Position numbers and translations under genes: made by a program
Sequence record: PZ452598.1
Direction: 5' to 3' (one strand)
From: a phage
Length of the DNA: 64,000 nt
Shown here: in pieces, positions 18,365 through 61,474 of the stretch
How the letters are laid out: each line of letters opens with the position of its first letter
How positions within the stretch are numbered: the stretch's first letter is position 1
The notes under the pieces: generated by a model
Told to the model about the DNA's origin: nothing
Seen by the model: the letters and a program-made list of their open reading frames with translations, nothing else
Database searches by the model: none

Positions 18365-18573
18365 CGAGGATAAACAGCTGCATGTCACCATGCAGTTCAG
18401 ACTATATCTTCAACTCTTAGAGTTGTCTGCCGTTTCGGGTCGCTTGACCCTACTCCCTTACATTCATCAGGGATAGTCGTTGGGCATTTACAGCTACTGC
18501 TGATTTAGCAACGGATTGTCTCAGTGAGAGTTTCCCGTTTTAGGCAGATTTTACATGAGCTTGACTTACGTTA

Positions 18574-19111
18574 ACTCATAAGCTTGGAATGCATCGTATA
18601 CGTCTTTTTCTGTTTTAGATTGAGCATAATTCAACGCATCAGCGATTTGCCATTTTTCTGCATCCTCAATATGTTTTGCATAGGTGCGTTTAACATAAGG
18701 AGAAAGTACTTTATCTACATTCGCAAAAGTCGTTCCGCCGTATTGGTGAGAAGCAACTTGCGCAGTAATTTGTGCCATAATTGCAGTAGCAACTCCAATT
18801 GATTTAGGAGTTTCAATCTGCGCATTACCAAGCTTAAATCCGTTTTCAAGCATTCCTTTTAAATCTACTAAACAGCAATTAGTAAATGGAAGAGCAGGGG
18901 AATAATCAATATCATGCACGTGAATAATTCCGCTTTCATGCGCTTTCATAATAAAAGACGGGACCATATTTTTGGCAATGTGTTTAGACACAATACCAGC
19001 CATAAGGTCCCGTTGAGTTGGAAAAACACGAGAATCTTTATTAGCATTCTCGTTTAAAAGGTCTTTATTAGTTTTATGAATTAATCCTTCAATTTCTTTT
19101 TCAATTGTCAT
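18574..19111 (-). CDS. nrdD: anaerobic ribonucleoside-triphosphate reductase NrdD, exon 1
   Basis: N-terminal 179 codons (MTIEKEIEGLIHKTNKDLL...). The track ORF runs 8 nt into the intron before its stop. Confidence 0.88.
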
Positions 19112-26629: not shown

Positions 26630-26672
26630 TTGATAGTTGTATAGTACCACAGCTCAAACGGAAAGTAAACCG
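26630..26672 (-). promoter_or_regulatory. T4-type early promoter with conserved leader
   Basis: Minus strand reads GTTTACTTTCCGTTTGAGCTGTGGTACTATACAACTATCAACTACGGAGGAA. Confidence 0.55.
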
Positions 26673-26708: not shown

Positions 26709-27095
26709 TTATTCGAGGGAAAGAAGATACTTACTCTGGTAAAACATTCCAGTAATATCATCTATCGTGCTTTGGATGGCTGGAGGCATTTCTTTATAAA
26801 TGCTGTTAGATTGGTCTAGTATGCGATCAATCATTTTAATTGTGTCGGTAGGAAGTTTACTGGCATCTGGAATTGAAGGCGTGTATTTTCGACCAGAATA
26901 CCCCAAATATTGCTCACCAAATTTATCAATCAAATCTGGCAACTCGGAAAAAATAAAATCGTATGCTTTGTGTCTAGCATAACTTTTAGTTTCAAAATGT
27001 GCAGAATGAAAATAAGCTTGTGCAGCCATTAATAAACCTAAGTATTCATCTGCCTTTGAAGGTTTTCCACTTTGTGAAAAGTCGCTGAATTTCAT
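26709..27095 (-). CDS. hypothetical protein (T4 rI.-1 position)
   Basis: 128-aa ORF immediately 3' of rI. Confidence 0.6.
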   Translation of the reverse strand: MKFSDFSQSGKPSKADEYLGLLMAAQAYFHSAHFETKSYARHKAYDFIFSELPDLIDKFGEQYLGYSGRKYTPSIPDASKLPTDTIKMIDRILDQSNSIYKEMPPAIQSTIDDITGMFYQSKYLLSLE

Positions 27096-27385
27096 TCAGT
27101 CTCCAATTTAATGTTCATAATTCTAGCGTATGATTGTGCCATCTCCGCGCCTCGCTCTATACATTCAAAATCAGAAGAGCACGGGTCATTTTTATAGGTC
27201 GTTCTCATAAAACTATAGAATTGTTCAGACGATTCTACGCTTTTATTTTCAAAAAGCATATAAACGTGCCTAATACCAGATTCCATAAATTTATCAAAAT
27301 GAGGATCGACATTCGCTTCAATCGATGGAGATAAAACAAATGACAATCCTAGCATGGCAAAAAGTGCTGTTGCTTTTAAGGCCAT
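27092..27385 (-). CDS. rI: lysis-inhibition regulator RI (antiholin)
   Basis: 97-aa ORF with signal-anchor N-terminus (MALKATALFAMLGLSFVLSPSIEA). Length and sequence as remembered for T4 RI. Confidence 0.85.
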   Translation of the reverse strand: MALKATALFAMLGLSFVLSPSIEANVDPHFDKFMESGIRHVYMLFENKSVESSEQFYSFMRTTYKNDPCSSDFECIERGAEMAQSYARIMNIKLETE

Positions 27386-28424: not shown

Positions 28425-28612
28425 AAGGAATTTATATAATCAATGAGTTCTTGTTCTTTATTATCGAATTCTTTAGAAAGTTCTTCGTACTCGTTTGCGC
28501 TAAAAGGACCGCATTCATTACAAACTTTTTCCAATTCACTATTTTTATCCATAACTTCGTGGATAAGAGAAAAGAGTGTGTCTTTTTGTTCTTTGCTTAA
28601 ACTCATAACCAT
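28421..28612 (-). CDS. small acidic protein (T4 tk.2 position)
   Basis: 63 aa. Paralog of the preceding ORF. Confidence 0.55.
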   Translation of the reverse strand: MVMSLSKEQKDTLFSLIHEVMDKNSELEKVCNECGPFSANEYEELSKEFDNKEQELIDYINSL

Positions 28613-28830
28613 GTCACCTTTAAGCAGTATTCTTCTACATGCTGTTTACGACCTTTCTTATCAATAAAGGTATATTCAACGAATGTTCCAATGTAGTCTT
28701 TATCTACATCATGTGGACTATTAATTGGACATTTAGTGCGACAAATGCGTTCCCATTGACGAATAATTACTGCCTTATTCTTTGGGTCATATGGATGTGG
28801 ATAATGTATATTCATAATAATGGTTCCCAA
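28603..28830 (-). CDS. hypothetical protein (T4 tk.3 position)
   Basis: 75-aa ORF. Confidence 0.5.
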   Translation of the reverse strand: MGTIIMNIHYPHPYDPKNKAVIIRQWERICRTKCPINSPHDVDKDYIGTFVEYTFIDKKGRKQHVEEYCLKVTWL

Positions 28831-29279
28831 TCAACAATCACAATTTCTAATTTAGAGGAATATGTATCTAAAATCCCCTCAATAATATCCCAGTTCCCTT
28901 TACCTATGCCTGCACCAATCCTAGGCATATAGATTGTAGGTTTAATCAGTTTATTTTCACCAAACTCATTTAATTCTAACATACAATTCATTAAAGCGGA
29001 ATACTCAAAATTTGGCCCTGGTTGAAATTGAGTATAAAGATTGAAGCAGTAAGCTTTATGAGTCCTAAAGTATTTTTCATAGACTGAGTAAGAACCGAGT
29101 TTAGTTACATCACCCCATTCAGTCTGTAATTTATCAGCTTCCAAAATTTTAGGGAAAGCTTTGGTTAATTGACCCGCTACGCCTGAACCCATAGTATGAA
29201 AACAATTACATCCATGTGCAATATTTTTACCTTCAGCGAAAAGGGCGACAATATCGCCCTTGATATATTTTACAATCAT
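28812..29279 (-). CDS. macro-domain-like protein (DarG/TARG1-type candidate ADP-ribosyl hydrolase); T4 tk.4 position
   Basis: 155 aa. N-terminal KGDI...IAHGCNCFHTMGSGVAGQL and distal PRIGAGIGKGNWD resemble macro-domain phosphate-binding loops. No search was run. Confidence 0.55.
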   Translation of the reverse strand: MIVKYIKGDIVALFAEGKNIAHGCNCFHTMGSGVAGQLTKAFPKILEADKLQTEWGDVTKLGSYSVYEKYFRTHKAYCFNLYTQFQPGPNFEYSALMNCMLELNEFGENKLIKPTIYMPRIGAGIGKGNWDIIEGILDTYSSKLEIVIVDWEPLL

Positions 29280-29623
29280 CTAGTACTCAATCCTCGATTA
29301 TAAGAATCTACCAAACGGTCAACCATTGAATGACAAGCGGCTTTATCTTTCTCCTCCGCAACTGAACATTCTAAGGTATTCCACTTTTTAGCATATCGTT
29401 TTAACAATGTATCGTTTTTGTATCTGCTTGATTTATCTCTTTCTCCGTCTTTATATGCATATATTAATTTCTGTGCAAATTCAGCTTGGCATGCCTTATT
29501 TTTCCCACAATAATCTGCCGCAGTGCGGTTTACATATTCTCTAATTTCAGTATATGATGTATCTGCTGACGCAGAAGCAGAAAATGAAATTAATCCTATA
29601 CATAAAACCAAAATTTTAGTCAT
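29276..29623 (-). CDS. vs: valyl-tRNA synthetase modifier Vs (secreted, signal peptide)
   Basis: 115-aa ORF with signal peptide (MTKILVLCIGLISFSASASA). Position between tk.4 and regB as in T4. Confidence 0.7.
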   Translation of the reverse strand: MTKILVLCIGLISFSASASADTSYTEIREYVNRTAADYCGKNKACQAEFAQKLIYAYKDGERDKSSRYKNDTLLKRYAKKWNTLECSVAEEKDKAACHSMVDRLVDSYNRGLSTR

Positions 29624-30161
29624 TTACTATTTCCAAAAGTTTATTATTTTTAAGGTAATTAGCCTTTTCTAGGACTTCAGAAGCATATTTAGAACCTGCT
29701 TTAACATTCCATCCCGAATTATAAGAGGATATTGCTTTTCTTATATCGCCCTTATGTATATTTAACCAATAAGAAAGTTCAATGTACGCCCAGGAAGCTG
29801 AATTGGATCGTTTATTCAACATTCTTTTTATTTCAGCATCGGTCATATTATAACCAAGTTCCTTAACTCTTGCTCGCATAGTAGGCAAATAATTTTGGAA
29901 CATTCCGTAGGCGTGATGCTTTGGTTTAGATTTTAAATTAACTCCGCCAGAGCTTTCTTGCCATAAAATGGCAGCCATTATATGACCTAATCCGCTCTTG
30001 TGGATATTTTTGTGTGTTTTATATTTTCCATCCTTAGAAAATTGTTCCCCGAATTGATACGCGTAACGCATGTTATCGAGTTGGACATTACTGAAAGTAT
30101 GCTCGGAGCTATGTGCCATCATTGAAATGGCCAATAGACCAGCGAGTAGTGCTTTTCTCAT
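29616..30161 (-). CDS. secreted lytic-transglycosylase-like protein (T4 vs.1 position)
   Basis: 181 aa with signal peptide and SLT-like motifs (ILWQESSGG, YGMFQ). Confidence 0.65.
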   Translation of the reverse strand: MRKALLAGLLAISMMAHSSEHTFSNVQLDNMRYAYQFGEQFSKDGKYKTHKNIHKSGLGHIMAAILWQESSGGVNLKSKPKHHAYGMFQNYLPTMRARVKELGYNMTDAEIKRMLNKRSNSASWAYIELSYWLNIHKGDIRKAISSYNSGWNVKAGSKYASEVLEKANYLKNNKLLEIVND

Positions 30162-30649: not shown

Positions 30650-30690
30650 ATAGAAAAATTATACCACAGTCAAGAGGAAAAGTAAACAGT
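30650..30690 (-). promoter_or_regulatory. T4-type early promoter for regB
   Basis: Minus strand reads GTTTACTTTTCCTCTTGACTGTGGTATAAT. Confidence 0.55.
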
Positions 30691-38505: not shown

Positions 38506-38539
38506 TTTATTCTCCAAGTTATTTTCTGTATCAGTAGTT

Positions 38540-38580
38540 GATAGTTGTATAGTACCATGGAAGAACAAGGATGTAAACAG
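38540..38580 (-). promoter_or_regulatory. T4-type early promoter with conserved leader
   Basis: Minus strand reads GTTTACATCCTTGTTCTTCCATGGTACTATACAACTATCAACTACTGA. Confidence 0.55.
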
Positions 38581-38704
38581 TTTTGTGAAAAAATTTTTAA
38601 AAAGTTTTAGGGAATTCTAGGGCGGAGAGGGGCAATTAAAAGATAGGATAATATATTATAAAGGGTATAAACTAAATGATGCCTAGAGAGGTCTGGAAAG
38701 GCTT

Positions 38705-39052: not shown

Positions 39053-39127
39053 TTGGTATCCCGCCCTGGGATCGAACCAGGACCGCAAACTTAGAAGGAT
39101 CGTATGCTATCCATTACACCAGCGGGA
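39053..39127 (-). tRNA. tRNA-Arg (anticodon UCU), CCA encoded
   Basis: Hand-folded: acceptor GUCCCGC/GCGGGAU, T-arm GGUUCGAUCC, anticodon loop CUUCUAA, 3' ACCA. Confidence 0.8.
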
Positions 39128-39133
39128 CGTAAT

Positions 39134-39799
39134 TTAAAATTTCATTTTTCGACCTTTAAACCATCCTTCTGGAATTGGGTCAGTTTTCTTAATACGTTTA
39201 GAAACTTTTTCATCTAATGAATGAATCCACATCATACCGAATTGGGAATTCTTTTCACCTTTCTGGTGATTATTTTTGGCGTGAGATTCTTTCATTTTAT
39301 TAATAGTTTCAGGAGTATGATGCTTATTTAGAAATCTGCTATTATTTAAAAATTTTTCCCTGTATTCAGGAGTTGACCACAAACGTTTAAATACATTTGA
39401 ACCAATTTTACGATATTTTTCTTGAAGTAAAATATCATTTTCAAAACGTGACTTAAACGATTTAGCTCCTTTTAAGCTAGCATCTTTCTTCTGGTTTAGC
39501 ATTCCAGGAATATTTACATGATCCCATCCACCTTCACCGCCAAGTTTTAAATTATACACATCTGGTCTATTTAAAAACTCTTCTGTGACAATATTTTTCT
39601 CGGCTTCAAGCATAGATTCTTTATCGTCAAAATACTCTAATATTTCTTTAGAAAAATTTTCTATACCATATTTATCTTGGGCTCTTTTTAATAATTTACC
39701 AGAACCCATATATCCATCATCTAAATTTTCGGTAGAATGCACACCAATATAAATTTTATTATTAATTTTATTTGTTATTTTATAAGTGTAATAGAACAT
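39134..39799 (-). CDS. segB: GIY-YIG homing endonuclease within the tRNA cluster
   Basis: 221 aa with GIY-YIG motif ([32 protein letters not shown]). Position and length match T4 SegB. Confidence 0.85.
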   Translation of the reverse strand: MFYYTYKITNKINNKIYIGVHSTENLDDGYMGSGKLLKRAQDKYGIENFSKEILEYFDDKESMLEAEKNIVTEEFLNRPDVYNLKLGGEGGWDHVNIPGMLNQKKDASLKGAKSFKSRFENDILLQEKYRKIGSNVFKRLWSTPEYREKFLNNSRFLNKHHTPETINKMKESHAKNNHQKGEKNSQFGMMWIHSLDEKVSKRIKKTDPIPEGWFKGRKMKF

Positions 39800-39840
39800 A
39801 AATATCTCCTATTTCTAAGAGTATTTATGTTCTCAAAATA

Positions 39841-39914
39841 TGACCCAGACCAGATTTGAACTGGTAACCTTTCCCTTATGAGGGGACTGCTGCTAACCAT
39901 TGAGCTACAGGGCC
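39841..39914 (-). tRNA. tRNA with anticodon CAU (Ile in T4; Met by anticodon alone)
   Basis: Hand-folded: T-loop UUCAAAU, anticodon loop CUCAUAA, no encoded CCA. One acceptor-stem mismatch, so ends approximate. Confidence 0.7.
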
Positions 39915-39915
39915 T

Positions 39916-39991
39916 TGGTGCTGATTGACGGAATCGAACCGCCGACATCCTCATTACAAGTGAGGTGCTCTACCTACTGAGCTAAATCAGC
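39916..39991 (-). tRNA. tRNA-Thr (UGU), CCA encoded
   Basis: Acceptor GCUGAUU/AAUCAGC, D-arm AGCUCAGUAGGUAGAGC, anticodon loop CUUGUAA, T-arm GGUUCGAUUCC. Confidence 0.8.
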
Positions 39992-39998
39992 AAAATTA

Positions 39999-40085
39999 CG
40001 GAGGCGATAGGATTTGAACCTATGAGTCGCCGGAGCGACTGCCGGTTTTCAAGACCGGTGCATTAAACCACTCTGCCACGCCTCC
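39999..40085 (-). tRNA. tRNA-Ser (UGA), long variable arm
   Basis: 87 nt. Anticodon loop CUUGAAA, T-arm GGUUCAAAUCC, extended variable arm, no encoded CCA. Confidence 0.8.
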
Positions 40086-40087
40086 AG

Positions 40088-40161
40088 TCTCCATACAAGG
40101 ATTTGAACCTTGGACCTCCTGATCCCAAATCAGGCGCTCTACCAAACTGAGCTACACGGAG
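40088..40161 (-). tRNA. tRNA-Pro (UGG)
   Basis: Anticodon loop UUUGGGA, T-arm GGUUCAAAUCC, D-arm AGCUCAGUUUGGUAGAGC. Confidence 0.8.
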
Positions 40162-40171
40162 TAAATTAAAT

Positions 40172-40245
<74 letters not shown>

Positions 40246-40250
40246 AAATT

Positions 40251-40339
40251 TGGTGCGAGAAGTGGGACTCGAACCCACAAGGAAATCATTCCGCAGCATT
40301 TTAAGTGCTGTGCCTTTACCAATTTGACCATTCTCGCGC
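40251..40339 (-). tRNA. tRNA-Leu (UAA), long variable arm, CCA encoded
   Basis: 89 nt. Acceptor GCGAGAA/UUCUCGC, anticodon loop CUUAAAA, T-arm GGUUCGAGUCC. Confidence 0.8.
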
Positions 40340-40411
40340 TGGGAATAAAGGACTCGAACCTTTGCATCTAGCAGTCAAAGTGCTATGCCTTACCAACTTG
40401 GCTAATTCCCA
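40340..40411 (-). tRNA. tRNA-Gln (UUG), abuts tRNA-Leu
   Basis: Acceptor UGGGAAU/AUUCCCA, anticodon loop CUUUGAC, T-arm GGUUCGAGUCC. Directly adjacent to Leu. Confidence 0.75.
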
Positions 40412-53900: not shown

Positions 53901-54040
53901 GTAAATTAATGAGTCCTTTATTTGATGCATCTGGAACAACATTTGCGCAATTTAGAGATTTAGTTAATAAACGTCTAAAAGATAATATAGGAAATCCAAG
54001 AGACCCTGAAAATCCAACACAGGTTAAAATAGATGAATGA
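50942..54040 (+). CDS. 7: baseplate wedge protein gp7
   Basis: 1032-aa ORF. Length and position match T4 gp7. Confidence 0.95.
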   Translation: MTVKAPSVTSLRISKLSANQVQVRWDDVGANFYYFVEIAETKTNSGENLPSNQYRWINLGYTANNSFFFDDADPLTTYIIRVATAAQDFEQSDWIYTEEFETFATNAYTFQNMIEMQLANKFIQEKFTLNNSDYVNFNNDTIMAALMNESFQFSPSYVDVSSISNFIIGENEYHEIQGSIQQVCKDINRVYLMESEGILYLFERYQPVVKVSNDKGQTWKAVKLFNDRVGYPLSKTVYYQSANTTYVLGYDKIFYGRKSTDVRWSADDVRFSSQDITFAKLGDQLHLGFDVEIFATYATLPANVYRIAEAITCTDDYIYVVARDKVRYIKTSNAPIDSDPLSPTYSERLFEPDTMTITGNPKAVCYKMDSICDKVFALIIGEVETLNANPRTSKIIDSADKGIYVLNHDEKTWKRVFGNTEEERRRIQPGYANMSTDGKLVSLSSSNFKFLSDNVVNDPETAAKYQLIGAVKYEFPREWLADKHYHMMAFIADETSDWETFTPQPMKYYAEPFFNWSKKSNTRCWINNSDRAVVVYADLKYTKVIENIPETSPDRLVHEYWDDGDCTIVMPNVKFTGFKKYASGMLFYKASGEIISYYDFNYRVRDTVEIIWKPTEVFLKAFLQNQEHETPWSPEEERGLADPDLRPLIGTMMPDSYLLQDSNFEAFCEAYIQYLSDGYGTQYNNLRNLIRNQYPREEHAWEYLWSEIYKRNIYLNADKRDAVARFFESRSYDFYSTKGIEASYKFLFKVLYNEEVEIEIESGAGTEYDIIVQSDSLTEDLVGQTIYTATGRCNVTYIERSYSNGKLQWTVTIHNLLGRLIAGQEVKAERLPSFEGEIIRGVKGKDLLQNNIDYINRSRSYYVMKIKSNLPSSRWKSDVIRFVHPVGFGFIAITLLTMFINVGLTLKHTETIINKYKNYKWDSGLPTEYADRIAKLTPTGEIEHDSVTGEAIYEPGPMAGVKYPLPDDYNAENNNSIFQGQLPSERRKLMSPLFDASGTTFAQFRDLVNKRLKDNIGNPRDPENPTQVKIDE

Positions 54041-55037
54041 TTCAAGTGTTATCTATCGTGCGATAGTTACTTCAAAATTTAGAACAGAAAAAATGTTGAA
54101 TTTTTATAATTCAATTGGAAGTGGTCCGGATAAAAACACTATCTTTATCACATTTGGAAGATCAGAACCGTGGTCATCAAATGAAAATGAGGTGGGCTTT
54201 GCCCCACCTTATCCAACCGATTCTGTATTAGGCGTAACTGACATGTGGACGCATATGATGGGAACAGTAAAAGTTCTTCCATCAATGCTTGATGCTGTTA
54301 TTCCTCGCAGAGATTGGGGAGATACTAGATATCCGGATCCATACACATTTAGAATTAACGATATTGTAGTGTGTAACTCAGCTCCTTACAACGCTACTGA
54401 ATCAGGCGCTGGTTGGTTAGTGTATCGTTGTTTAGATGTTCCTGATACCGGAATGTGTTCAATAGCATCTTTAACTGATAAAGATGAATGCCTTAAGTTA
54501 GGTGGAAAATGGACTCCTTCTGCTAGGTCAATGACTCCGCCTGAAGGTCGAGGAGATGCTGAAGGAACAATTGAACCCGGAGACGGGTATGTGTGGGAAT
54601 ATCTATTTGAGATTCCGCCTGATGTATCTATAAATAGATGCACGAATGAATATATCGTGGTTCCTTGGCCTGAGGAATTAAAAGAAGACCCGACTAGATG
54701 GGGATATGAAGATAATCTCACTTGGCAACAAGATGATTTTGGATTAATTTACCGTGTTAAGGCAAATACTATCCGTTTTAAAGCATATTTAGATTCAGTT
54801 TATTTTCCTGAAGCTGCATTGCCAGGAAATAAAGGATTTAGACAAATATCAATAATCACGAATCCTCTTGAAGCTAAAGCTCATCCAAATGACCCAAACG
54901 TTAAAGCTGAAAAGGATTATTATGACCCAGAAGATTTAATGAGGCATTCGGGTGAAATGATTTATATGGAAAATAGGCCACCTATTATTATGGCAATGGA
55001 TCAAACAGAAGAAATCAATATTCTGTTTACATTTTAA
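54033..55037 (+). CDS. 8: baseplate wedge protein gp8
   Basis: 334-aa ORF. Length and position match T4 gp8. Confidence 0.95.
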   Translation: MNDSSVIYRAIVTSKFRTEKMLNFYNSIGSGPDKNTIFITFGRSEPWSSNENEVGFAPPYPTDSVLGVTDMWTHMMGTVKVLPSMLDAVIPRRDWGDTRYPDPYTFRINDIVVCNSAPYNATESGAGWLVYRCLDVPDTGMCSIASLTDKDECLKLGGKWTPSARSMTPPEGRGDAEGTIEPGDGYVWEYLFEIPPDVSINRCTNEYIVVPWPEELKEDPTRWGYEDNLTWQQDDFGLIYRVKANTIRFKAYLDSVYFPEAALPGNKGFRQISIITNPLEAKAHPNDPNVKAEKDYYDPEDLMRHSGEMIYMENRPPIIMAMDQTEEINILFTF

Positions 55038-55042
55038 ATTAA

Positions 55043-55060
55043 GGGAGCCCATGGGCTCCC
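55043..55060 (+). terminator. rho-independent terminator 3' of gene 8
   Basis: Perfect palindrome gggagcccatgggctccc followed by ttttt. Confidence 0.7.
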
Positions 55061-55068
55061 TTTTTCTT

Positions 55069-55076
55069 TATAAATA
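55069..55076 (+). promoter_or_regulatory. late promoter core TATAAATA for gene 9
   Basis: Plus-strand tataaata 25 nt upstream of the gene 9 ATG, just after the terminator. Confidence 0.65.
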
Positions 55077-55100
55077 CTATAAACTCATAAGGAAACCGCT

Positions 55101-55967
55101 ATGTTCATTCAAGAACCAAAGAAATTGATTGATACCGGCGAAATTGGTAACGCTTCTACTGGTGATATCTTATTCGACGGTGGTAATAAAATTAATAGTG
55201 ATTTTAACGCAATTTATAATGCGTTTGGCGATCAGCGTAAAATGGCAGTAGCAAATGGCACTGGAGCAGATGGTCAAATTATCCATGCTACTGGATATTA
55301 TCAAAAACACTCTATTACAGAGTACGCAACTCCAGTGAAAGTTGGCACTAGACATGATATTGATACCTCTACTGTAGGTGTTAAAGTTATCATTGAAAGA
55401 GGCGAACTCGGCGATTGTGTTGAATTCATTAACTCTAATGGATCAATATCAGTTACTAATCCTTTGACAATTCAAGCTATTGATTCAATTAAAGGTGTTT
55501 CAGGTAATTTAGTAGTAACTAGCCCATATAGTAAAGTTACTTTACGCTGTATTTCATCTGATAATTCTACGTCGGTTTGGAATTATTCTATTGAAAGTAT
55601 GTTTGGACAAAAGGAATCACCAGCTGAAGGTACATGGAATATTTCTACATCTGGATCAGTTGACATTCCATTATTTCATCGTACTGAATACAATATGGCT
55701 AAATTGCTAGTTACGTGCCAATCGGTAGATGGAAGAAAAATTAAAACAGCAGAAATAAATATTCTTGTGGATACTGTTAATTCAGAGGTAATTTCTTCTG
55801 AATATGCTGTCATGCGAGTTGGGAATGAAACCGAAGAAGACGAAATCGCTAATATTGCATTTAGTATTAAAGAAAATTATGTAACGGCGACTATAAGTTC
55901 TTCAACTGTCGGTATGAGAGCAGCAGTTAAAGTTATCGCTACGCAGAAAATCGGGGTGGCTCAATAA
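55101..55967 (+). CDS. 9: baseplate wedge / long-tail-fibre socket protein gp9
   Basis: 288-aa ORF. Length and position match T4 gp9. Confidence 0.95.
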   Translation: MFIQEPKKLIDTGEIGNASTGDILFDGGNKINSDFNAIYNAFGDQRKMAVANGTGADGQIIHATGYYQKHSITEYATPVKVGTRHDIDTSTVGVKVIIERGELGDCVEFINSNGSISVTNPLTIQAIDSIKGVSGNLVVTSPYSKVTLRCISSDNSTSVWNYSIESMFGQKESPAEGTWNISTSGSVDIPLFHRTEYNMAKLLVTCQSVDGRKIKTAEINILVDTVNSEVISSEYAVMRVGNETEEDEIANIAFSIKENYVTATISSSTVGMRAAVKVIATQKIGVAQ

Positions 55968-57775
55968 TGAAACAAAATATTAATATCGGTAATGTTGTAG
56001 ATGATGGTACCGGTGACTACCTGCGTAAAGGTGGTATAAAAATAAATGAAAACTTTGATGAGCTTTATTATGAACTCGGTGATGGTGATGTTCCATATTC
56101 AGCCGGTGCCTGGAAAACTTATAATGCTTCATCAGGACAAACATTAACAGCAGAATGGGGAAAATCATACGCTATTAATACATCTTCTGGAAGAGTGACT
56201 ATAAATCTTCCAAAGGGTACAGTTAATGATTACAACAAGGTAATTAGAGCTAGAGACGTATTTGCTACATGGAACGTCAACCCAGTTACACTAGTAGCTG
56301 CTTCCGGCGATACGATTAAAGGGTCTGCAGTACCAGTTGAAATTAATGTTCAATTCAGCGATTTAGAACTAGTGTATTGTGCCCCAGGACGTTGGGAATA
56401 TGTCAAAAATAAACAAATTGACAAAATTACCAGTTCAGACATTAGTAATGTAGCTCGCAAAGAATTTTTAGTTGAAGTTAAAGGACAAACAGACTTTTTA
56501 GATGTTTTCCGTGGAACTAGTTATAATGTAAATAACATCAGAGTAAAACATCGTGGTAACGAATTGTATTACGGCGATGTGTTTAGCGAAAACAGCGATT
56601 TTGGCTCTCCAGGCGAAAATGAAGGAGAACTGGTTCCTCTTGATGGATTTAACATTCGATTAAGACAGCCTTGTAATATTGGTGACACTGTTCAAATTGA
56701 AACATTTATGGATGGTGTATCACAGTGGAGAAGTTCATATACAAGACGTCAAATTAGATTGTTAGATTCAAAATTAACGTCAAAAACTTCTTTAGAAGGA
56801 AGCATTTACGTTACTGATTTATCAACAATGAAATCAATTCCATTTTCTGCTTTTGGATTAATTCCAGGAGAACCTATTAATCCTAACTCTCTTGAGGTTC
56901 GTTTTAACGGGATTTTACAGGAATTGGCTGGCACAGTTGGAATGCCATTATTTCATTGTGTTGGTGCCGATTCAGACGATGAAGTAGAATGCTCTGTTTT
57001 AGGTGGAACTTGGGAACAATCTCATACCGATTATTCAGTTGAAACTGATGAAAACGGCATACCAGAAATTTTACATTTCGATAGAGTATTTGAGCATGGT
57101 GACATTATCAATATCACCTGGTTTAATAATGATTTGGGTACATTATTAACAAAAGATGAGATTATTGATGAAACTGATAATCTCTATGTATCGCAAGGAC
57201 CTGGAGTAGATATTTCTGGTGATGTAAATTTAACAGACTTCGATAAAATTGGTTGGCCAAATGTAGAAGCAGTTCAATCTTATCAACGCGAATTTAATGC
57301 TGTTTCAAATATCTTTGATACGATTTATCCTATTGGAACTATATATGAAAACGCTGTTAATCCAAATAACCCTGTTACATATATGGGATTCGGCTCATGG
57401 AAATTATTTGGGCAAGGAAAAGTTTTAGTTGGATGGAATGAAGATATTTCGGACCCTAACTTTGCTCTAAATAACAACGATTTAGATTCGGGTGGAAATC
57501 CTTCACATACCGCAGGTGGAACAGGTGGTTCTACTTCTGTTACATTGGAAAATGCTAATCTTCCTGCAACTGAAACAGATGAAGAAGTTCTAATAGTTGA
57601 TGAAAATGGATCAGTCATTGTTGGTGGGTGTCAATACGATCCAGATGAATCCGGTCCAATTTACACTAAATACCGTGAAGCTAAAGCATCTACTAACTCT
57701 ACTCACACTCCGCCAACATCAATAACTAACATTCAACCATATATTACAGTTTATCGTTGGATAAGGATTGCATAA
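55967..57775 (+). CDS. 10: baseplate wedge protein gp10
   Basis: 602-aa ORF. TAATG overlap with gene 9. Confidence 0.95.
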
Positions 57776-58434
57776 TGAGTTTACTTAATAATAAAGCGGG
57801 AGTTATTTCCCGCTTAGCCGATTTTCTTGGTTTTAGACCTAAAACTGGCGACATTGATGTAATGAATCGTCAATCAGTCGGGTCAGTGACAATATCTCAA
57901 TTAGCGAAAGGATTTTATGAACCAAACATAGAATCAGCTATTAATGACGTTCATAATTTTTCTATAAAAGACGTTGGCACAATTATTACTAATAAAACTG
58001 GTGTTTCTCCTGAGGGTGTTTCTCAAACTGATTATTGGGCATTTTCTGGAACTGTAACAGACGATTCTCTTCCTCCGGGTTCTCCTATTACGGTATTAGT
58101 ATTTGGTCTTCCAGTTTCAGCAACAACTGGAATGACGGCAATTGAGTTTGTTGCAAAAGTTCGCGTTGCACTACAAGAAGCTATTGCGTCATTTACTGCT
58201 ATCAATTCATATAAAGACCATCCAACTGATGGTAGTAAATTAGAAGTTACTTATTTAGATAATCAAAAACATGTATTAAGCACATATTCTACATATGGAA
58301 TAACTATTTCCCAAGAAATTATATCTGAGTCTAAGCCTGGCTATGGTACATGGAATTTATTGGGCGCACAAACTGTAACTTTAGATAATCAGCAGACTCC
58401 TACAGTATTTTATCATTTTGAGAGAACAGCATGA
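57775..58434 (+). CDS. 11: baseplate wedge protein gp11
   Basis: Track ORF 225 aa; start trimmed to MSLLNNKAG (219 aa), which overlaps the gene 10 stop. Confidence 0.9.
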
Positions 58435-60014
58435 GTAATAATACATATCAACACGTTTCTAATGAATCTCGTTATGTAAAATTTGATCCTACCGATACGA
58501 ATTTTCCACCGGAGATTACTGATGTTCAGGCTGCTATAGCAGCCATTTCTCCTGCTGGAGTAAATGGAGTTCCTGATGCATCGTCAACAACAAAGGGAAT
58601 TCTATTTCTTGCCACTGAACAGGAAGTTATAGATGGAACTAATAATACCAAAGCAGTTACACCAGCAACGTTGGCAACAAGATTATCTTATCCAAATGCA
58701 ACTGAAACTGTTTACGGATTAACAAGATATTCAACCAATGATGAAGCCATTGCCGGAGTTAATAATGAATCTTCTATAACTCCAGCTAAATTTACTGTCG
58801 CCCTTAATAATGCGTTTGAAACGCGAGTTTCAACTGAATCCTCAAATGGTGTTATTAAAATTTCATCTCTACCGCAAGCATTAGCTGGTGCAGATGATAC
58901 TACTGCAATGACTCCATTAAAAACACAGCAGTTAGCTATTAAATTAATTGCGCAAATTGCTCCTTCTGAAACCACAGCTACCGAATCGGACCAAGGTGTT
59001 GTTCAATTAGCAACAGTAGCGCAGGTTCGTCAGGGAACTTTAAGAGAAGGCTATGCAATTTCTCCTTATACGTTTATGAATTCATCTGCTACTGAAGAAT
59101 ATAAAGGCGTAATTAAATTAGGAACACAATCAGAAGTTAACTCGAATAATGCTTCTGTTGCGGTTACTGGCGCAACTCTTAATGGTCGTGGTTCTACGAC
59201 GTCAATGAGAGGCGTAGTTAAATTAACTACAACCGCCGGTTCACAGAGTGGAGGCGATGCTTCATCAGCCTTAGCTTGGAATGCTGACGTTATCCACCAA
59301 AGAGGTGGTCAAATTATCTATGGAACACTCCGCATTGAAGACACATTTACAATAGCTAATGGTGGAGCAAATATTACGGGTACCGTCAGAATGACTGGCG
59401 GTTATATTCAAGGTAACCGCATCGTAACACAAAATGAAATTGATAGAACTATTCCTGTCGGAGCTATTATGATGTGGGCCGCTGATAGTCTTCCTAGTGA
59501 TGCTTGGCGCTTCTGCCATGGTGGAACTGTTTCAGCGTCAGATTGTCCATTATATGCTTCTAGAATTGGAACAAGATATGGCGGAAACCCATCAAATCCT
59601 GGATTGCCTGACATGCGTGGTCTTTTTGTTCGTGGTTCTGGTCGTGGTTCTCACTTAACAAATCCAAATGTTAATGGTAATGACCAATTTGGTAAACCTA
59701 GATTAGGTGTAGGTTGTACCGGTGGATATGTTGGTGAAGTACAGAAACAACAGATGTCTTATCATAAACATGCTGGCGGATTTGGTGAGCATGATGATTC
59801 TGGGGCATTCGGTAATACCCGTAGATCAAATTTTGTTGGTACACGTAAAGGACTTGACTGGGATAACCGTTCATACTTCACCAATGACGGATATGAAATT
59901 GACCCAGAATCACAACGAAATTCCAAATATACATTAAATCGTCCTGAATTAATTGGAAATGAAACACGTCCATGGAACATTTCTTTAAACTACATAATTA
60001 AGGTAAAAGAATGA
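58431..60014 (+). CDS. 12: short tail fibre protein gp12
   Basis: 527-aa ORF with repetitive Thr/Ala/Gly-rich N-terminal fibre region and C-terminal receptor-binding domain. Confidence 0.95.
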
Positions 60015-61474
60015 CAGATATTGTACTGAATGACTTACCATTCGTTGACGGCCCTCCTGCAGAGGGCCAGAGCCGCATTTCCTGGATTAAAAACGGCGAA
60101 GAAATATTAGGAGCTGACACACAGTATGGAAGTGAAGGCTCAATGAATAGACCTACGGTTTCTGTACTAAGAAATGTTGAAGTTCTTGATAAAAACATTG
60201 GAATACTTAAAACATCTTTAGAAACCGCAAATAGTGATATTAAAACAATTCAGGGCATCTTAGATGTATCTGGTGATATTGAAGCTTTGGCCCAAATAGG
60301 TATCAATAAAAAGGATATTTCTGACCTCAAAACGCTAACCAGTGAACACACAGAAATATTAAATGGAACTAATAATACGGTTGACAGTATTCTTGCCGAT
60401 ATTGGTCCATTTAACGCCGAGGCCAACTCTGTATACAGAACGATCAGAAATGATTTACTGTGGATAAAGCGTGAACTTGGACAATACACTGGTCAAGATA
60501 TTAATGGTCTTCCTGTTGTAGGAAATCCTAGTAGTGGAATGAAGCATCGCATTATTAATAATACTGATGTCATCACTTCGCAGGGAATACGTTTAAGCGA
60601 ATTAGAAACAAAATTTATTGAATCTGATGTAGGTTCTTTGACCATTGAAGTTGGTAATCTTCGTGAAGAGCTTGGACCGAAACCACCATCATTTTCACAG
60701 AACGTTTATAGTCGTTTAAATGAAATTGACACTAAACAGACAACAGTTGAGTCTGACATTAGTGCTATTAAGACCTCAATAGGATATCCAGGAAATAATT
60801 CGATTATCACGAGTGTTAATACAAACACTGATAATATTGCATCTATTAATTTAGAGCTAAATCAAAGTGGAGGTATTAAACAGCGTTTAACCGTTATTGA
60901 AACTTCCATTGGTTCAGATGATATTCCTTCGAGTATTAAAGGTCAAATCAAAGATAATACAACTTCAATCGAATCTCTAAATGGAATCGTCGGTGAAAAC
61001 ACTTCATCTGGCTTAAGAGCGAATGTTTCATGGTTAAACCAAATTGTTGGAACTGATTCTAGCGGTGGACAACCTTCTCCTCCTGGGTCTCTTTTAAACC
61101 GAGTTTCTACAATTGAAACTTCTGTTTCAGGCTTGAATAACGATGTTCAAAACCTACAAGTAGAGATTGGTAATAACAGCACAGGAATTAAAGGGCAAGT
61201 TGTAGCGTTAAATACTTTAGTAAATGGAACTAATCCAAACGGTTCAACTGTTGAAGAGCGCGGATTAACCAATTCAATAAAAGCTAACGAAACTAACATT
61301 GCATCAGTTACACAAGAAGTGAATACAGCTAAAGGCAATATATCTTCTTTACAAGGTGATGTTCAAGCTCTCCAAGAAGCCGGTTATATTCCTGAAGCTC
61401 CAAGAGATGGGCAAGCTTACGTTCGTAAAGATGGCGAATGGGTATTGCTTTCTACCTTTTTATCACCAGCATAA
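60011..61474 (+). CDS. wac: fibritin (whisker antigen control)
   Basis: 487-aa coiled-coil ORF ending in the foldon ([27 protein letters not shown]). Confidence 0.97.

Follow-up and report, generated by a model that had tools for sequence, protein, structure and literature searches.

The phage T4 gene tk.4 (adfM) encodes a stand-alone macrodomain with a probable DNA de-ADP-ribosylation role against DarTG2

The tk.4 locus

The window, the whole 64,000-nucleotide stretch of DNA analysed here (sequence record PZ452598.1), comes from the genome of phage T4. Its ORF listing holds, at positions 28812..29279 of the minus strand, a frame of 155 amino acids with an ATG start, whose stop codon occupies 28812-28814 and whose whole product is one macro domain. 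The product is 100% identical to the reference T4 protein Tk.4 (AAD42667.1; 155/155 residues), and the ORF is the T4 gene tk.4, renamed adfM. The original prediction had placed a 155-residue ORF exactly here, without giving the strand.

In the T4 annotation, the neighbours of tk.4 are vs and tk.3, and ATGA overlaps join the gene to both. The vs stop and the tk.4 start share positions 29276..29279 (minus strand; direct reading ...ACTAGATGATTGTA...); in the T4 reference vs ends at T4 61386 and tk.4 spans T4 60922-61389. On the other side, the tk.4 stop and the annotated tk.3 start share 28812..28815 (minus strand; direct reading ...TTATTATGAATATA...), the tk.3 start being annotated one base from the end of tk.4. 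The complete identity with T4 Tk.4, together with these overlaps on both flanks, indicates that the ORF is a real gene. The adfM of the T4 reference is the same gene in the same vs-tk.4-tk.3 position, with no difference within it, although about 4.8 kb of the reference is missing from the window genome some 2 kb transcriptionally downstream of tk.4. The polymorphism reported among T4 sublines at residue 36 does not separate the two sequences, since the window and AF158101.6 both carry Gly36.

The gene belongs to a co-directional string, regB-vs.1-vs-tk.4-tk.3-tk.2-tk.1-tk, and T4-like phages carry it within this regB-vs-tk string and not beside NAD+ genes. The best sigma-70-like match upstream of regB, at 30658..30686 of the minus strand (TTTACT-17-TATAAT with an upstream TG, 10/12 matches), may tentatively mark the start of the regB-to-tk string. 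A promoter and terminator scan around tk.4 detected 15 promoter-like sites, no excess over the 15.1 expected from shuffled sequence, and no minus-strand terminators, so that the case for a tk.4 operon comes from gene packing and overlapping codons only.

Macro-domain fold and active site of Tk.4

The Pfam Macro profile (PF01661) matched Tk.4 with an E-value of 2.9e-6 and 27.7 bits, above its gathering score of 22, over profile positions 2-113 of 118, and the PADLOC DarG model did so with an E-value of 1.3e-9. Profile-profile comparison with hhalign related Tk.4 to an alignment of DarG, TARG1 and PhiKZ gp104 (probability 99.4%, E 2.5e-21) and to SCO6735 of Streptomyces coelicolor (PDB 5e3b) with BT1257 of Bacteroides (2fg1/2afc; 98.9%, E 2.7e-17). 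The AlphaFold2 model (pLDDT 95, pTM 0.90) comprises seven strands and five helices and has the three-layer alpha/beta/alpha architecture of macro domains around a central mixed sheet, and Foldseek returned 129 PDB matches for it at E<=0.001, the top 50 being macro domains or macro-scaffold designs. Human TARG1/OARD1 (4j5r) was the best structural match (E 5.5e-10, TM 0.74-0.81), and the nearest neighbours also included yeast Poa1p (6lfq; TM 0.80), DarG from Thermus aquaticus (5m31/5m3e) and M. tuberculosis (5m3i), BT1257 and SCO6735. These proteins and their relatives fill ranks 1-24, and viral and MacroD types appear from rank 25 with lower TM values.

Profile searches and the predicted structure, with matches far better than chance would give, thus confirm Tk.4 as a genuine macro domain of the ALC1/TARG1-like class. 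The original prediction of a macro domain in the DarG/TARG1 class is upheld on both counts, with the Pfam Macro score above gathering and with TARG1 and DarG among the top Foldseek matches; an A1pp/macro match of the tk.4 product has been known since 2006. A whole-genome tblastn and a search with the family HMM found exactly one family member in T4 and no second macro domain. The three motifs on which the prediction had been built were all located in the protein, KGDI at residues 7-10, IAHGCNCFHTMGSGVAGQL at residues 20-38 and PRIGAGIGKGNWD at residues 119-131, and the two DarG motifs that it had named, VNCVGVMGKGIA and PPLGVGNGGLDW, both occur in chain 5m3i, the DarG macrodomain of M. tuberculosis.

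Residue conservation was read from a MAFFT alignment of 80 sequences, including 74 family members plus outgroups, and residue equivalences from this alignment and two profile-profile alignments, which agreed with one another. A pairwise HMMER alignment of Tk.4 with BT1257 was dropped for this use, as it put the NLYTQ strand and ANMIGQ in different registers. A PDB search with the C-terminal 95 residues aligned only 28 residues; the SCO6735 sequence was obtained through a BT1257 query, and its numbering fits the residue numbers of the SCO6735 paper. Loop 1 (residues 22-33, HGCNCFHTMGSG; 29181..29216, minus strand) contains His22 and Asn25 together with the first glycine-rich stretch for phosphate binding (Gly31, Gly33). 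Asn25 and Gly33 are invariant in the 74 family members and His22 is present in 69 of them; His22 and Asn25 correspond in hhalign to His24 and Asn27 of SCO6735. In the second, diphosphate-binding glycine-rich loop (residues 119-130, PRIGAGIGKGNW; 28890..28925, minus strand), Pro119, Gly122 and Gly124 are invariant among the 74 relatives, and the two glycines align with Gly126 and Gly128 of SCO6735. The codon of Asp49 lies at 29133..29135 (minus strand); this residue is Asp in 74/74 members of the phage Tk.4/Adpp family and Tyr in SCO6735, BT1257 and DarG. The CAA codon of Gln84, at 29028..29030 (minus strand), specifies a residue that hhalign aligns with the catalytic Lys80 of T. aquaticus DarG, Lys84 of TARG1 and Gln85 of SCO6735, and this position is Gln in every one of the 74 members.

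The resemblance to DarG and TARG1 that was originally proposed therefore holds for the fold and the glycine loops but not for the catalytic residues: where TARG1 has the Lys84/Asp125 dyad, Tk.4 has Gln84 and, in the Asp125 column, Gly126. DarG and Tk.4 have the same fold class and target pathway, and both carry the pair of glycine-rich loops, but the catalytic lysine of DarG is replaced by Gln and its C-terminal DarT-binding domain is missing from the 155-residue phage protein, which reaches 30.3 bits where the NCBIfam DarG model (NF048014) requires 250, over positions 2-146 of 338 only. Judged by these alignments, the active site of Tk.4 is not of the DarG type, and the protein is closer to the SCO6735/BT1257/Poa1p branch than to DarG and TARG1. 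With SCO6735 and BT1257 it has in common the ALC1/TARG1-like fold, the Gln at the catalytic position, the His, the Asn and both sets of glycine-loop residues. Identity to these two is nevertheless only 22-30%, they are cellular and not viral proteins, and they carry Tyr and Ile in place of Asp49 and Tyr82. Moreover, Lys34 of SCO6735, which positions DNA, corresponds to Ser32 in Tk.4, and the loop bearing SCO6735 Lys89 is absent. The lack of the DarG catalytic lysine and of both DNA-positioning lysines of SCO6735 counts against an action of Tk.4 on ADP-ribosylated DNA. TARG1 and Poa1p, for their part, come from eukaryotic cells, where their physiological roles are different, Poa1p being an ADPR-1''P phosphatase.

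Protection of T4 from DarTG2

Many bacteria defend themselves with DarT toxins, which ADP-ribosylate phage DNA; T4 counters the thymidine-modifying branch of this defence, the toxin-antitoxin system DarTG2, with Tk.4/AdfM. According to the passages on this gene in a preprint that has not been peer reviewed (bioRxiv 10.1101/2025.11.20.689424), a T4 transposon library screened on a DarTG2 host yielded one significant hit, the depletion of tk.4, with T5 as the sensitive control; a clean tk.4 knockout made the phage DarTG2-sensitive, and the gene was renamed adfM for anti-DarT factor Macrodomain. The genetic evidence given there is gene deletion, and enzymatic removal by T4 AdfM is described only as something that "seems likely". 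A whole-genome tblastn and the family HMM found no relative of Tk.4 in T5, which fits the DarTG2 sensitivity of that phage; T5.105, annotated as Sir2, was considered as a hidden macro domain and gave no match to the family HMM. No darT gene neighbours tk.4, and the T4 feature tables examined contain no DarT or toxin-antitoxin annotation. The anti-DarTG2 function of tk.4 is thus already known: the original guess was right, and the finding is not new. The reversal of DarT-type DNA ADP-ribosylation that had been foreseen agrees with these genetics, and we infer that the protection is enzymatic, with thymidine-linked ADP-ribose on DNA as the substrate of a Gln/water mechanism.

Two characterised proteins bear on this chemistry. 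SCO6735 frees DNA of thymidine-linked ADP-ribose, gives protection from DarT, shows some activity on auto-modified PARP1, and loses its activity completely or nearly so in the Q85A/E and N27S mutants (PMC9411070). In vitro, PhiKZ gp104, likewise called AdfM, strips DNA of the ADP-ribose that DarT2 attaches (Cell Rep 2026, PMC13309987), showing that a strategy of DNA de-ADP-ribosylation exists in phages. Like Tk.4, it is a stand-alone phage macrodomain that counters DarTG2, but it is truly DarG-like, with the lysine kept and 138 bits in the DarG model compared with 30 for Tk.4, and BLASTP aligned only 23 residues of the two proteins (E 0.005). The lysine and DarG score of gp104, together with this poor pairwise match, mark the two proteins called AdfM as independent recruitments from different macro branches.

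We consider it probable that Tk.4 is a stand-alone macrodomain enzyme which guards replicating T4 DNA from DarTG2 by hydrolysing thymidine-ADP-ribose. DarT2 uses NAD+ to place ADP-ribose on thymidine of single-stranded DNA and thereby blocks replication. Tk.4/AdfM, as an early-expressed, stand-alone protein of the ALC1/TARG1-like class, would most likely bind this ADP-ribose with both glycine-rich loops (residues 31-33 and 122-128) and split its C1''-N bond to thymine by hydrolysis, which would set the ADP-ribose free and leave the DNA intact. By analogy, the chemistry is probably that of SCO6735 and not the lysine type of DarG and TARG1: Gln84, held by Asn25, would position the distal ribose and a water molecule would start the reaction, an active-site geometry drawn from alignments alone.

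Phage relatives and alternative activities

Tk.4 has homologues in phages of many genera, with 2,847 records. One homologue, Adpp of Vibrio phage Gary (KNV71_gp137), acts in the NARP1-AP pathway, and the purified protein was found by LC-MS to convert ADPR-1P to ADPR (bioRxiv 10.64898/2026.01.28.702374). It belongs to the same phage family as Tk.4, with 32-35% identity (tblastn E 5e-19 against T4, 35% over 140 residues; E 3e-15 in the phage collection), and has in common with it His22, Asn25, Asp49, Tyr82, Gln84 and both glycine loops. The two differ in context and in demonstrated effect, as the Gary gene sits between Adps and Namat and its product acts on soluble ADPR-1P, whereas the phenotype measured for tk.4 concerns DarTG2. 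That the closest experimentally characterised phage relative is a small-molecule phosphatase with the same conserved residues counts against thymidine-ADP-ribose hydrolysis by Tk.4. Among nine non-T4 loci inspected, the gene lay inside a NARP1 operon in three and near polynucleotide kinase or RNA ligase genes in another three. Positions 23 (Gly/Gln) and 83 (Thr/Gly) were considered as marks of the NARP1-linked proteins; they distinguish Gary and PaGz-1, whereas Aci01-1 does not show the difference, and no residue consistently discriminated NARP1-linked from T4-like homologues among the three NARP1-linked examples.

These relatives raise the question of whether Tk.4 is mainly a small-molecule enzyme, an ADPR-1''P phosphatase or another hydrolase of soluble ADP-ribose derivatives arising from NAD+-consuming defences or RNA repair, with the DarTG2 phenotype as a side or indirect effect. 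Besides the activity of Gary Adpp and the NARP1, kinase and ligase contexts, this reading draws on a better sequence match of Tk.4 to Poa1p (2.8e-6) than to DarG (5e-4), on the name phosphatase carried by PHROG 335, and on the view of Iyer et al. 2022 that the targets of phage macro domains are mostly soluble ADP-ribose derivatives. It is nonetheless unlikely. The best tblastn matches to Adps and Namat in the whole T4 genome had E-values of 0.04-2, that is, no homologues were found, and in T4 ADPR made from ADPR-1P would consequently not rebuild NAD+. In addition, an ADPR-1P phosphatase offers no route to DarTG2 resistance, the sole phenotype measured for tk.4, and the placement of the gene in the regB-vs-tk string of T4-like phages, away from NAD+ genes, speaks against it.

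Another way of reconciling the two activities is that the glutamine-type phage macrodomains of PHROG 335 (Tk.4/AdfM and Gary Adpp with their relatives, in about 2,800 phage records) form one dual-substrate family, an idea that we regard as possible but put forward tentatively. If true, a single site would cleave whichever leaving group is attached at C1'', thymine in DarT2-modified DNA or phosphate in the ADPR-1''P of RES-type NADases; Tk.4 would then have ADPR-1''P phosphatase activity too, and NARP1-linked Adpp would in turn confer protection from DarTG2. In the relevant passages of the 2025-26 preprints on AdfM and Adpp, each reports one activity in one phage. A text search of the Adpp preprint (bioRxiv 10.64898/2026.01.28.702374) gave no mention of DarT, DarG or AdfM, and ADPR-1P, Adpp and NARP1 are absent from the passages on tk.4, adfM, DarTG2 and macrodomain in the AdfM preprint (bioRxiv 10.1101/2025.11.20.689424).

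Tk.4 could also protect mainly without catalysis, by binding DarT2 or the ADP-ribosylated DNA and mimicking an antitoxin through sequestration. Catalytically dead SCO6735 (Q85A), DarG (K80A) and TARG1 (K84A) inhibit DarT in vitro, SCO6735 most strongly (PMC9411070), and the tk.4 passages of the T4 preprint (bioRxiv 10.1101/2025.11.20.689424) report a deletion only and no catalytic mutant. Since SCO6735 and DarG inhibit DarT by direct binding as well, a non-catalytic contribution beside hydrolysis is possible. As the main mode of action, however, sequestration seems improbable: Tk.4 consists of the macro domain without the DarT-binding domain of DarG, and the strict invariance of the ADP-ribose-pocket residues Asn25, Gln84, Gly33, Gly122 and Gly124 among widely differing phages with widely differing hosts points to conserved catalysis and not to the binding of one toxin.

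Alt and ModA/ModB place ADP-ribose on arginine, a linkage reversed by ARH-type enzymes. The linkages at C1'' that macrodomains are known to break are of the ester, phosphate and thymine kinds. The second role suggested originally, in which Tk.4 would erase or tune protein (or RNA) ADP-ribosylation by these three T4 transferases (modA and modB at T4 11.9-13.1 kb, alt at 123.5-125.5 kb), found no supporting evidence and is highly improbable, for although TARG1-class macrodomains can strip protein-linked ADP-ribose, as SCO6735 does to some extent from PARP1, the arginine linkage falls outside those known for macrodomains, none of alt, modA and modB neighbours tk.4, homologues are spread over many phage genera, and the sole measured phenotype is defence-specific.

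Tk.4/AdfM complements a second T4 protein, the NADAR enzyme AdfN (gene 30.3), whose task is the guanosine-modifying branch, DarTG1. This pairing is already in the literature, and the case mainly shows that a reading of raw sequence can recover a true function. Because Tk.4 lacks the lysine of DarG and TARG1 and has all its conserved residues in common with a phage ADPR-1''P phosphatase, it is a good system for studying how such a site chooses between leaving groups, a DNA base or a phosphate, and it could show whether a single phage gene blunts two different NAD+-based defences.

Identity and surroundings of tk.4

The source of the window is bacteriophage T4, and a 3.1-kb stretch around tk.4 matches several T4 records at 100% identity. 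The reference labels the ORF at 28812-29279 (minus strand) tk.4 (AAD42667.1, 'conserved hypothetical protein'), and our translation matches that protein at 155/155 residues. The reference annotation places tk.4 between vs (valyl-tRNA synthetase modifier) and tk.3, within a tightly packed, co-directional string formed by regB, vs.1, vs, tk.4, tk.3, tk.2, tk.1 and tk. An ATGA is found at both ends of tk.4, overlapping its start with the vs stop and its stop with the annotated tk.3 start, which suggests translational coupling of tk.4 and its neighbours inside one transcript. A consensus promoter scan around tk.4 was uninformative (15 sites versus 15.1 expected), with the best minus-strand match upstream of regB, and scanning from regB to tk found no minus-strand terminators. 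The gene directly upstream, vs (29276-29623, minus strand), showed the strongest depletion of all T4 genes in minimal medium according to the HIDEN-SEQ preprint (bioRxiv 10.1101/2025.11.20.689424). The ORF listing gives vs.1 at 29616-30161 (minus strand); its protein has an N-terminal signal-like sequence and is labelled an SLT transglycosylase domain protein in one record. For tk.3, mechanical ORF listing gave 28603-28830 (minus strand) with a TTG start at 28830 inside tk.4, but the annotated ATG at 28815, which forms the ATGA with the tk.4 stop, is more plausible.

The window is not collinear with T4 reference AF158101, of which 53926-58741 (about 4.8 kb) is absent together with nrdC.9, nrdC.10, nrdC.11, mobD and mobD.1 to mobD.5. 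The junction (window 26632-26652) is a 21-nt sequence around GGTTGTATAGTACCACAG, and since the reference has a copy at both ends, recombination between short direct repeats probably deleted this segment. A search of 50,697 phage records gave no single contiguous match across the junction. Ordinary T4 landmarks are a cluster of eight tRNA genes at 39054-40411 (minus strand; Arg, Met with anticodon CAT, Thr, Ser, Pro, Gly, Leu and Gln) and a group I intron at 18378-18609 (Rfam RF00028, 105 bits) in the position of the nrdD intron. The 75 nt at 38525-38599 are a short dispersed intergenic repeat, with 93% identity to reference T4 27027-27101, near imm.1 and just outside the window.

Macro-domain fold and function against DarTG2

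The original prediction had read this ORF as resembling a macro domain of the DarG/TARG1 class from three motifs, all of them present (residues 7-10, 20-38 and 119-131). Pfam Macro (PF01661) matches Tk.4 above its gathering score (27.7 versus 22 bits), and a PDB sequence search gave BT1257 (1.3e-9), yeast Poa1p (2.8e-6) and SCO6735 (3.3e-4) as best matches, with T. aquaticus DarG (5.2e-4), TARG1 (6e-4) and M. tuberculosis DarG (5.7e-3) further down. The AlphaFold2 model, with 65 homologues in the input, reached a mean pLDDT of 95 and a pTM of 0.90, and its Foldseek comparison with the PDB ranked TARG1 first (E 5.5e-10), then Poa1p, DarG, BT1257 and SCO6735, with viral Mac1-type and MacroD-type domains below them and with smaller TM scores. 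These results confirm the macro-domain observation and support its interpretation: DarG/TARG1 is correct as a fold class, but the catalytic residue is not DarG-like, Gln84 replacing the lysine.

An A1pp (macro) domain match of tk.4 orthologues dates from 2006 (PMC1524935), and present-day database labels read 'macro domain-containing protein' or 'phosphatase'. The main functional idea, that Tk.4 counters DarT-type DNA ADP-ribosylation, was right and is already known from genetics on DarTG2, the thymidine-modifying toxin-antitoxin defence. The HIDEN-SEQ preprint of November 2025 (bioRxiv 10.1101/2025.11.20.689424) reports that tk.4 was the single significant hit when a T4 transposon library was grown on E. 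coli expressing DarTG2, that its clean deletion rendered T4 DarTG2-sensitive, with T5 as sensitive control, and that the gene was renamed adfM (anti-DarT factor Macrodomain). There, enzymatic removal of ADP-ribose from DNA by AdfM 'seems likely' by analogy with AdfN, the NADAR enzyme of gene 30.3 that counters DarTG1. The key functional evidence on Tk.4 in T4 comes from this one preprint. In agreement with the genetic result, the whole genome of DarTG2-sensitive T5 yielded no family member (tblastn E<=1; family HMM).

A glutamine-type active site

When 65 Tk.4 relatives were aligned profile to profile with DarG, PhiKZ gp104 and TARG1 (probability 99.4%, E 2.5e-21), Gln84 shared a column with DarG Lys80 and TARG1 Lys84, and the identity of this lysine column was checked by residue counts along PDB chains. 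Gly126 of Tk.4 is the counterpart of TARG1 Asp125. Gln84 is kept in 74/74 aligned phage family members. Judged by these alignments, the active site is not DarG-like, and Tk.4 scores 30 bits on the NCBIfam DarG model (cut-off 250), over the macro half only. PhiKZ gp104, also a phage macrodomain and also named AdfM, strips DarT2-made ADP-ribose off DNA in vitro (PMC13309987, from which we took its sequence). However, gp104 is lysine-type and DarG-like, with 138 bits on the same model, and pairwise BLASTP barely aligns it with Tk.4; the T4 and PhiKZ proteins are independent recruitments.

Direct profile alignment of the Tk.4 family with SCO6735 and BT1257 (98.9%, E 2.7e-17) equates Gln84 with Gln85 of S. 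coelicolor SCO6735, Asn25 with Asn27, His22 with His24, and Gly122/Gly124 with Gly126/Gly128. SCO6735 is a proven thymidine-linked ADP-ribose hydrolase on DNA that shields Streptomyces from DarT; Q85A/E mutants are dead and N27S nearly so, and the proposed mechanism is water-initiated, with Gln85 positioning the distal ribose (PMC9411070). This chemistry without a lysine is a precedent for the reaction proposed for AdfM. Unlike SCO6735, Tk.4 lacks both DNA-positioning lysines (Lys34 is Ser32 and the Lys89 loop is absent). Asp49 (29133-29135, minus strand) and Tyr82 (29034-29036, minus strand) are invariant in the 74 phage members, whereas SCO6735, BT1257 and DarG carry Tyr and Ile/Pro at these positions; this family-specific signature could be a catalytic or specificity determinant. 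Lys127 (28899-28901), in the second glycine-rich loop, is Gly in 68/74 relatives, and we speculate that it might partly stand in for the DNA-positioning lysines of SCO6735. The residue roles proposed here derive from alignments and the SCO6735 literature.

Phage relatives and the activity of Tk.4 in T4

Relatives of Tk.4 were found by tblastn in 2,847/50,697 phage records across many genera. In a neighbourhood census of nine non-T4 loci, three, from the unrelated Acinetobacter phage Aci01-1, Vibrio phage Gary and Pseudomonas phage PaGz-1, hold the homologue inside a NARP1 (Adps-Namat) operon, with PRPS-like and nicotinamide phosphoribosyltransferase-like genes (Gary KNV71_gp137 at L003:4004-4480, the others at L002:4001-4474 and L005:4001-4480, these being our handles for the loci). 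Polynucleotide kinase or RNA ligase genes lie nearby in another 3/9 (UAB_Phi87, D482 and KPP-1); T4 gene order is kept in Skers but not in Kimel, and partially in Mm5, with regB upstream and a lysis-inhibition gene downstream.

A preprint of January 2026 (bioRxiv 10.64898/2026.01.28.702374) describes KNV71_gp137 under the name Adpp; in it, the purified enzyme converts ADPR-1''-phosphate, the aRES defence product, to ADPR, from which Adps and Namat (NARP1) can rebuild NAD+. Adpp has 32-35% identity to Tk.4 (E 5e-19 against T4) and carries all of the family's invariant residues, Asp49, Tyr82 and Gln84 among them; a text search of that preprint found no mention of DarT, DarG or AdfM.

We consider DNA de-ADP-ribosylation by a Gln-type mechanism the probable role of Tk.4 in T4, a role favoured by the T5 result and by the two points given below on a small-molecule enzyme. 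That dead SCO6735, DarG and TARG1 still inhibit DarT (PMC9411070) suggests a mainly non-catalytic Tk.4 that sequesters DarT2, a reading we judge improbable. We give equally little credence to Tk.4 being mainly a small-molecule enzyme: acting as a phosphatase would leave DarTG2 resistance, the sole measured phenotype, unexplained, and tblastn found no Adps or Namat homologues in the whole T4 genome (best E 0.04-2), where a genome-wide search detected tk.4 as the only macro domain, so that a NARP1-AP role makes no sense there. Erasure of T4's own Alt/ModA/ModB marks is very improbable. Since both reactions cut a C1'' bond of the distal ribose, the glutamine-type family (Tk.4 and Adpp) may conceivably be bifunctional, although we hold this only tentatively. 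The residual value lies in the mechanistic question and in the so far unremarked homology between AdfM and Adpp.
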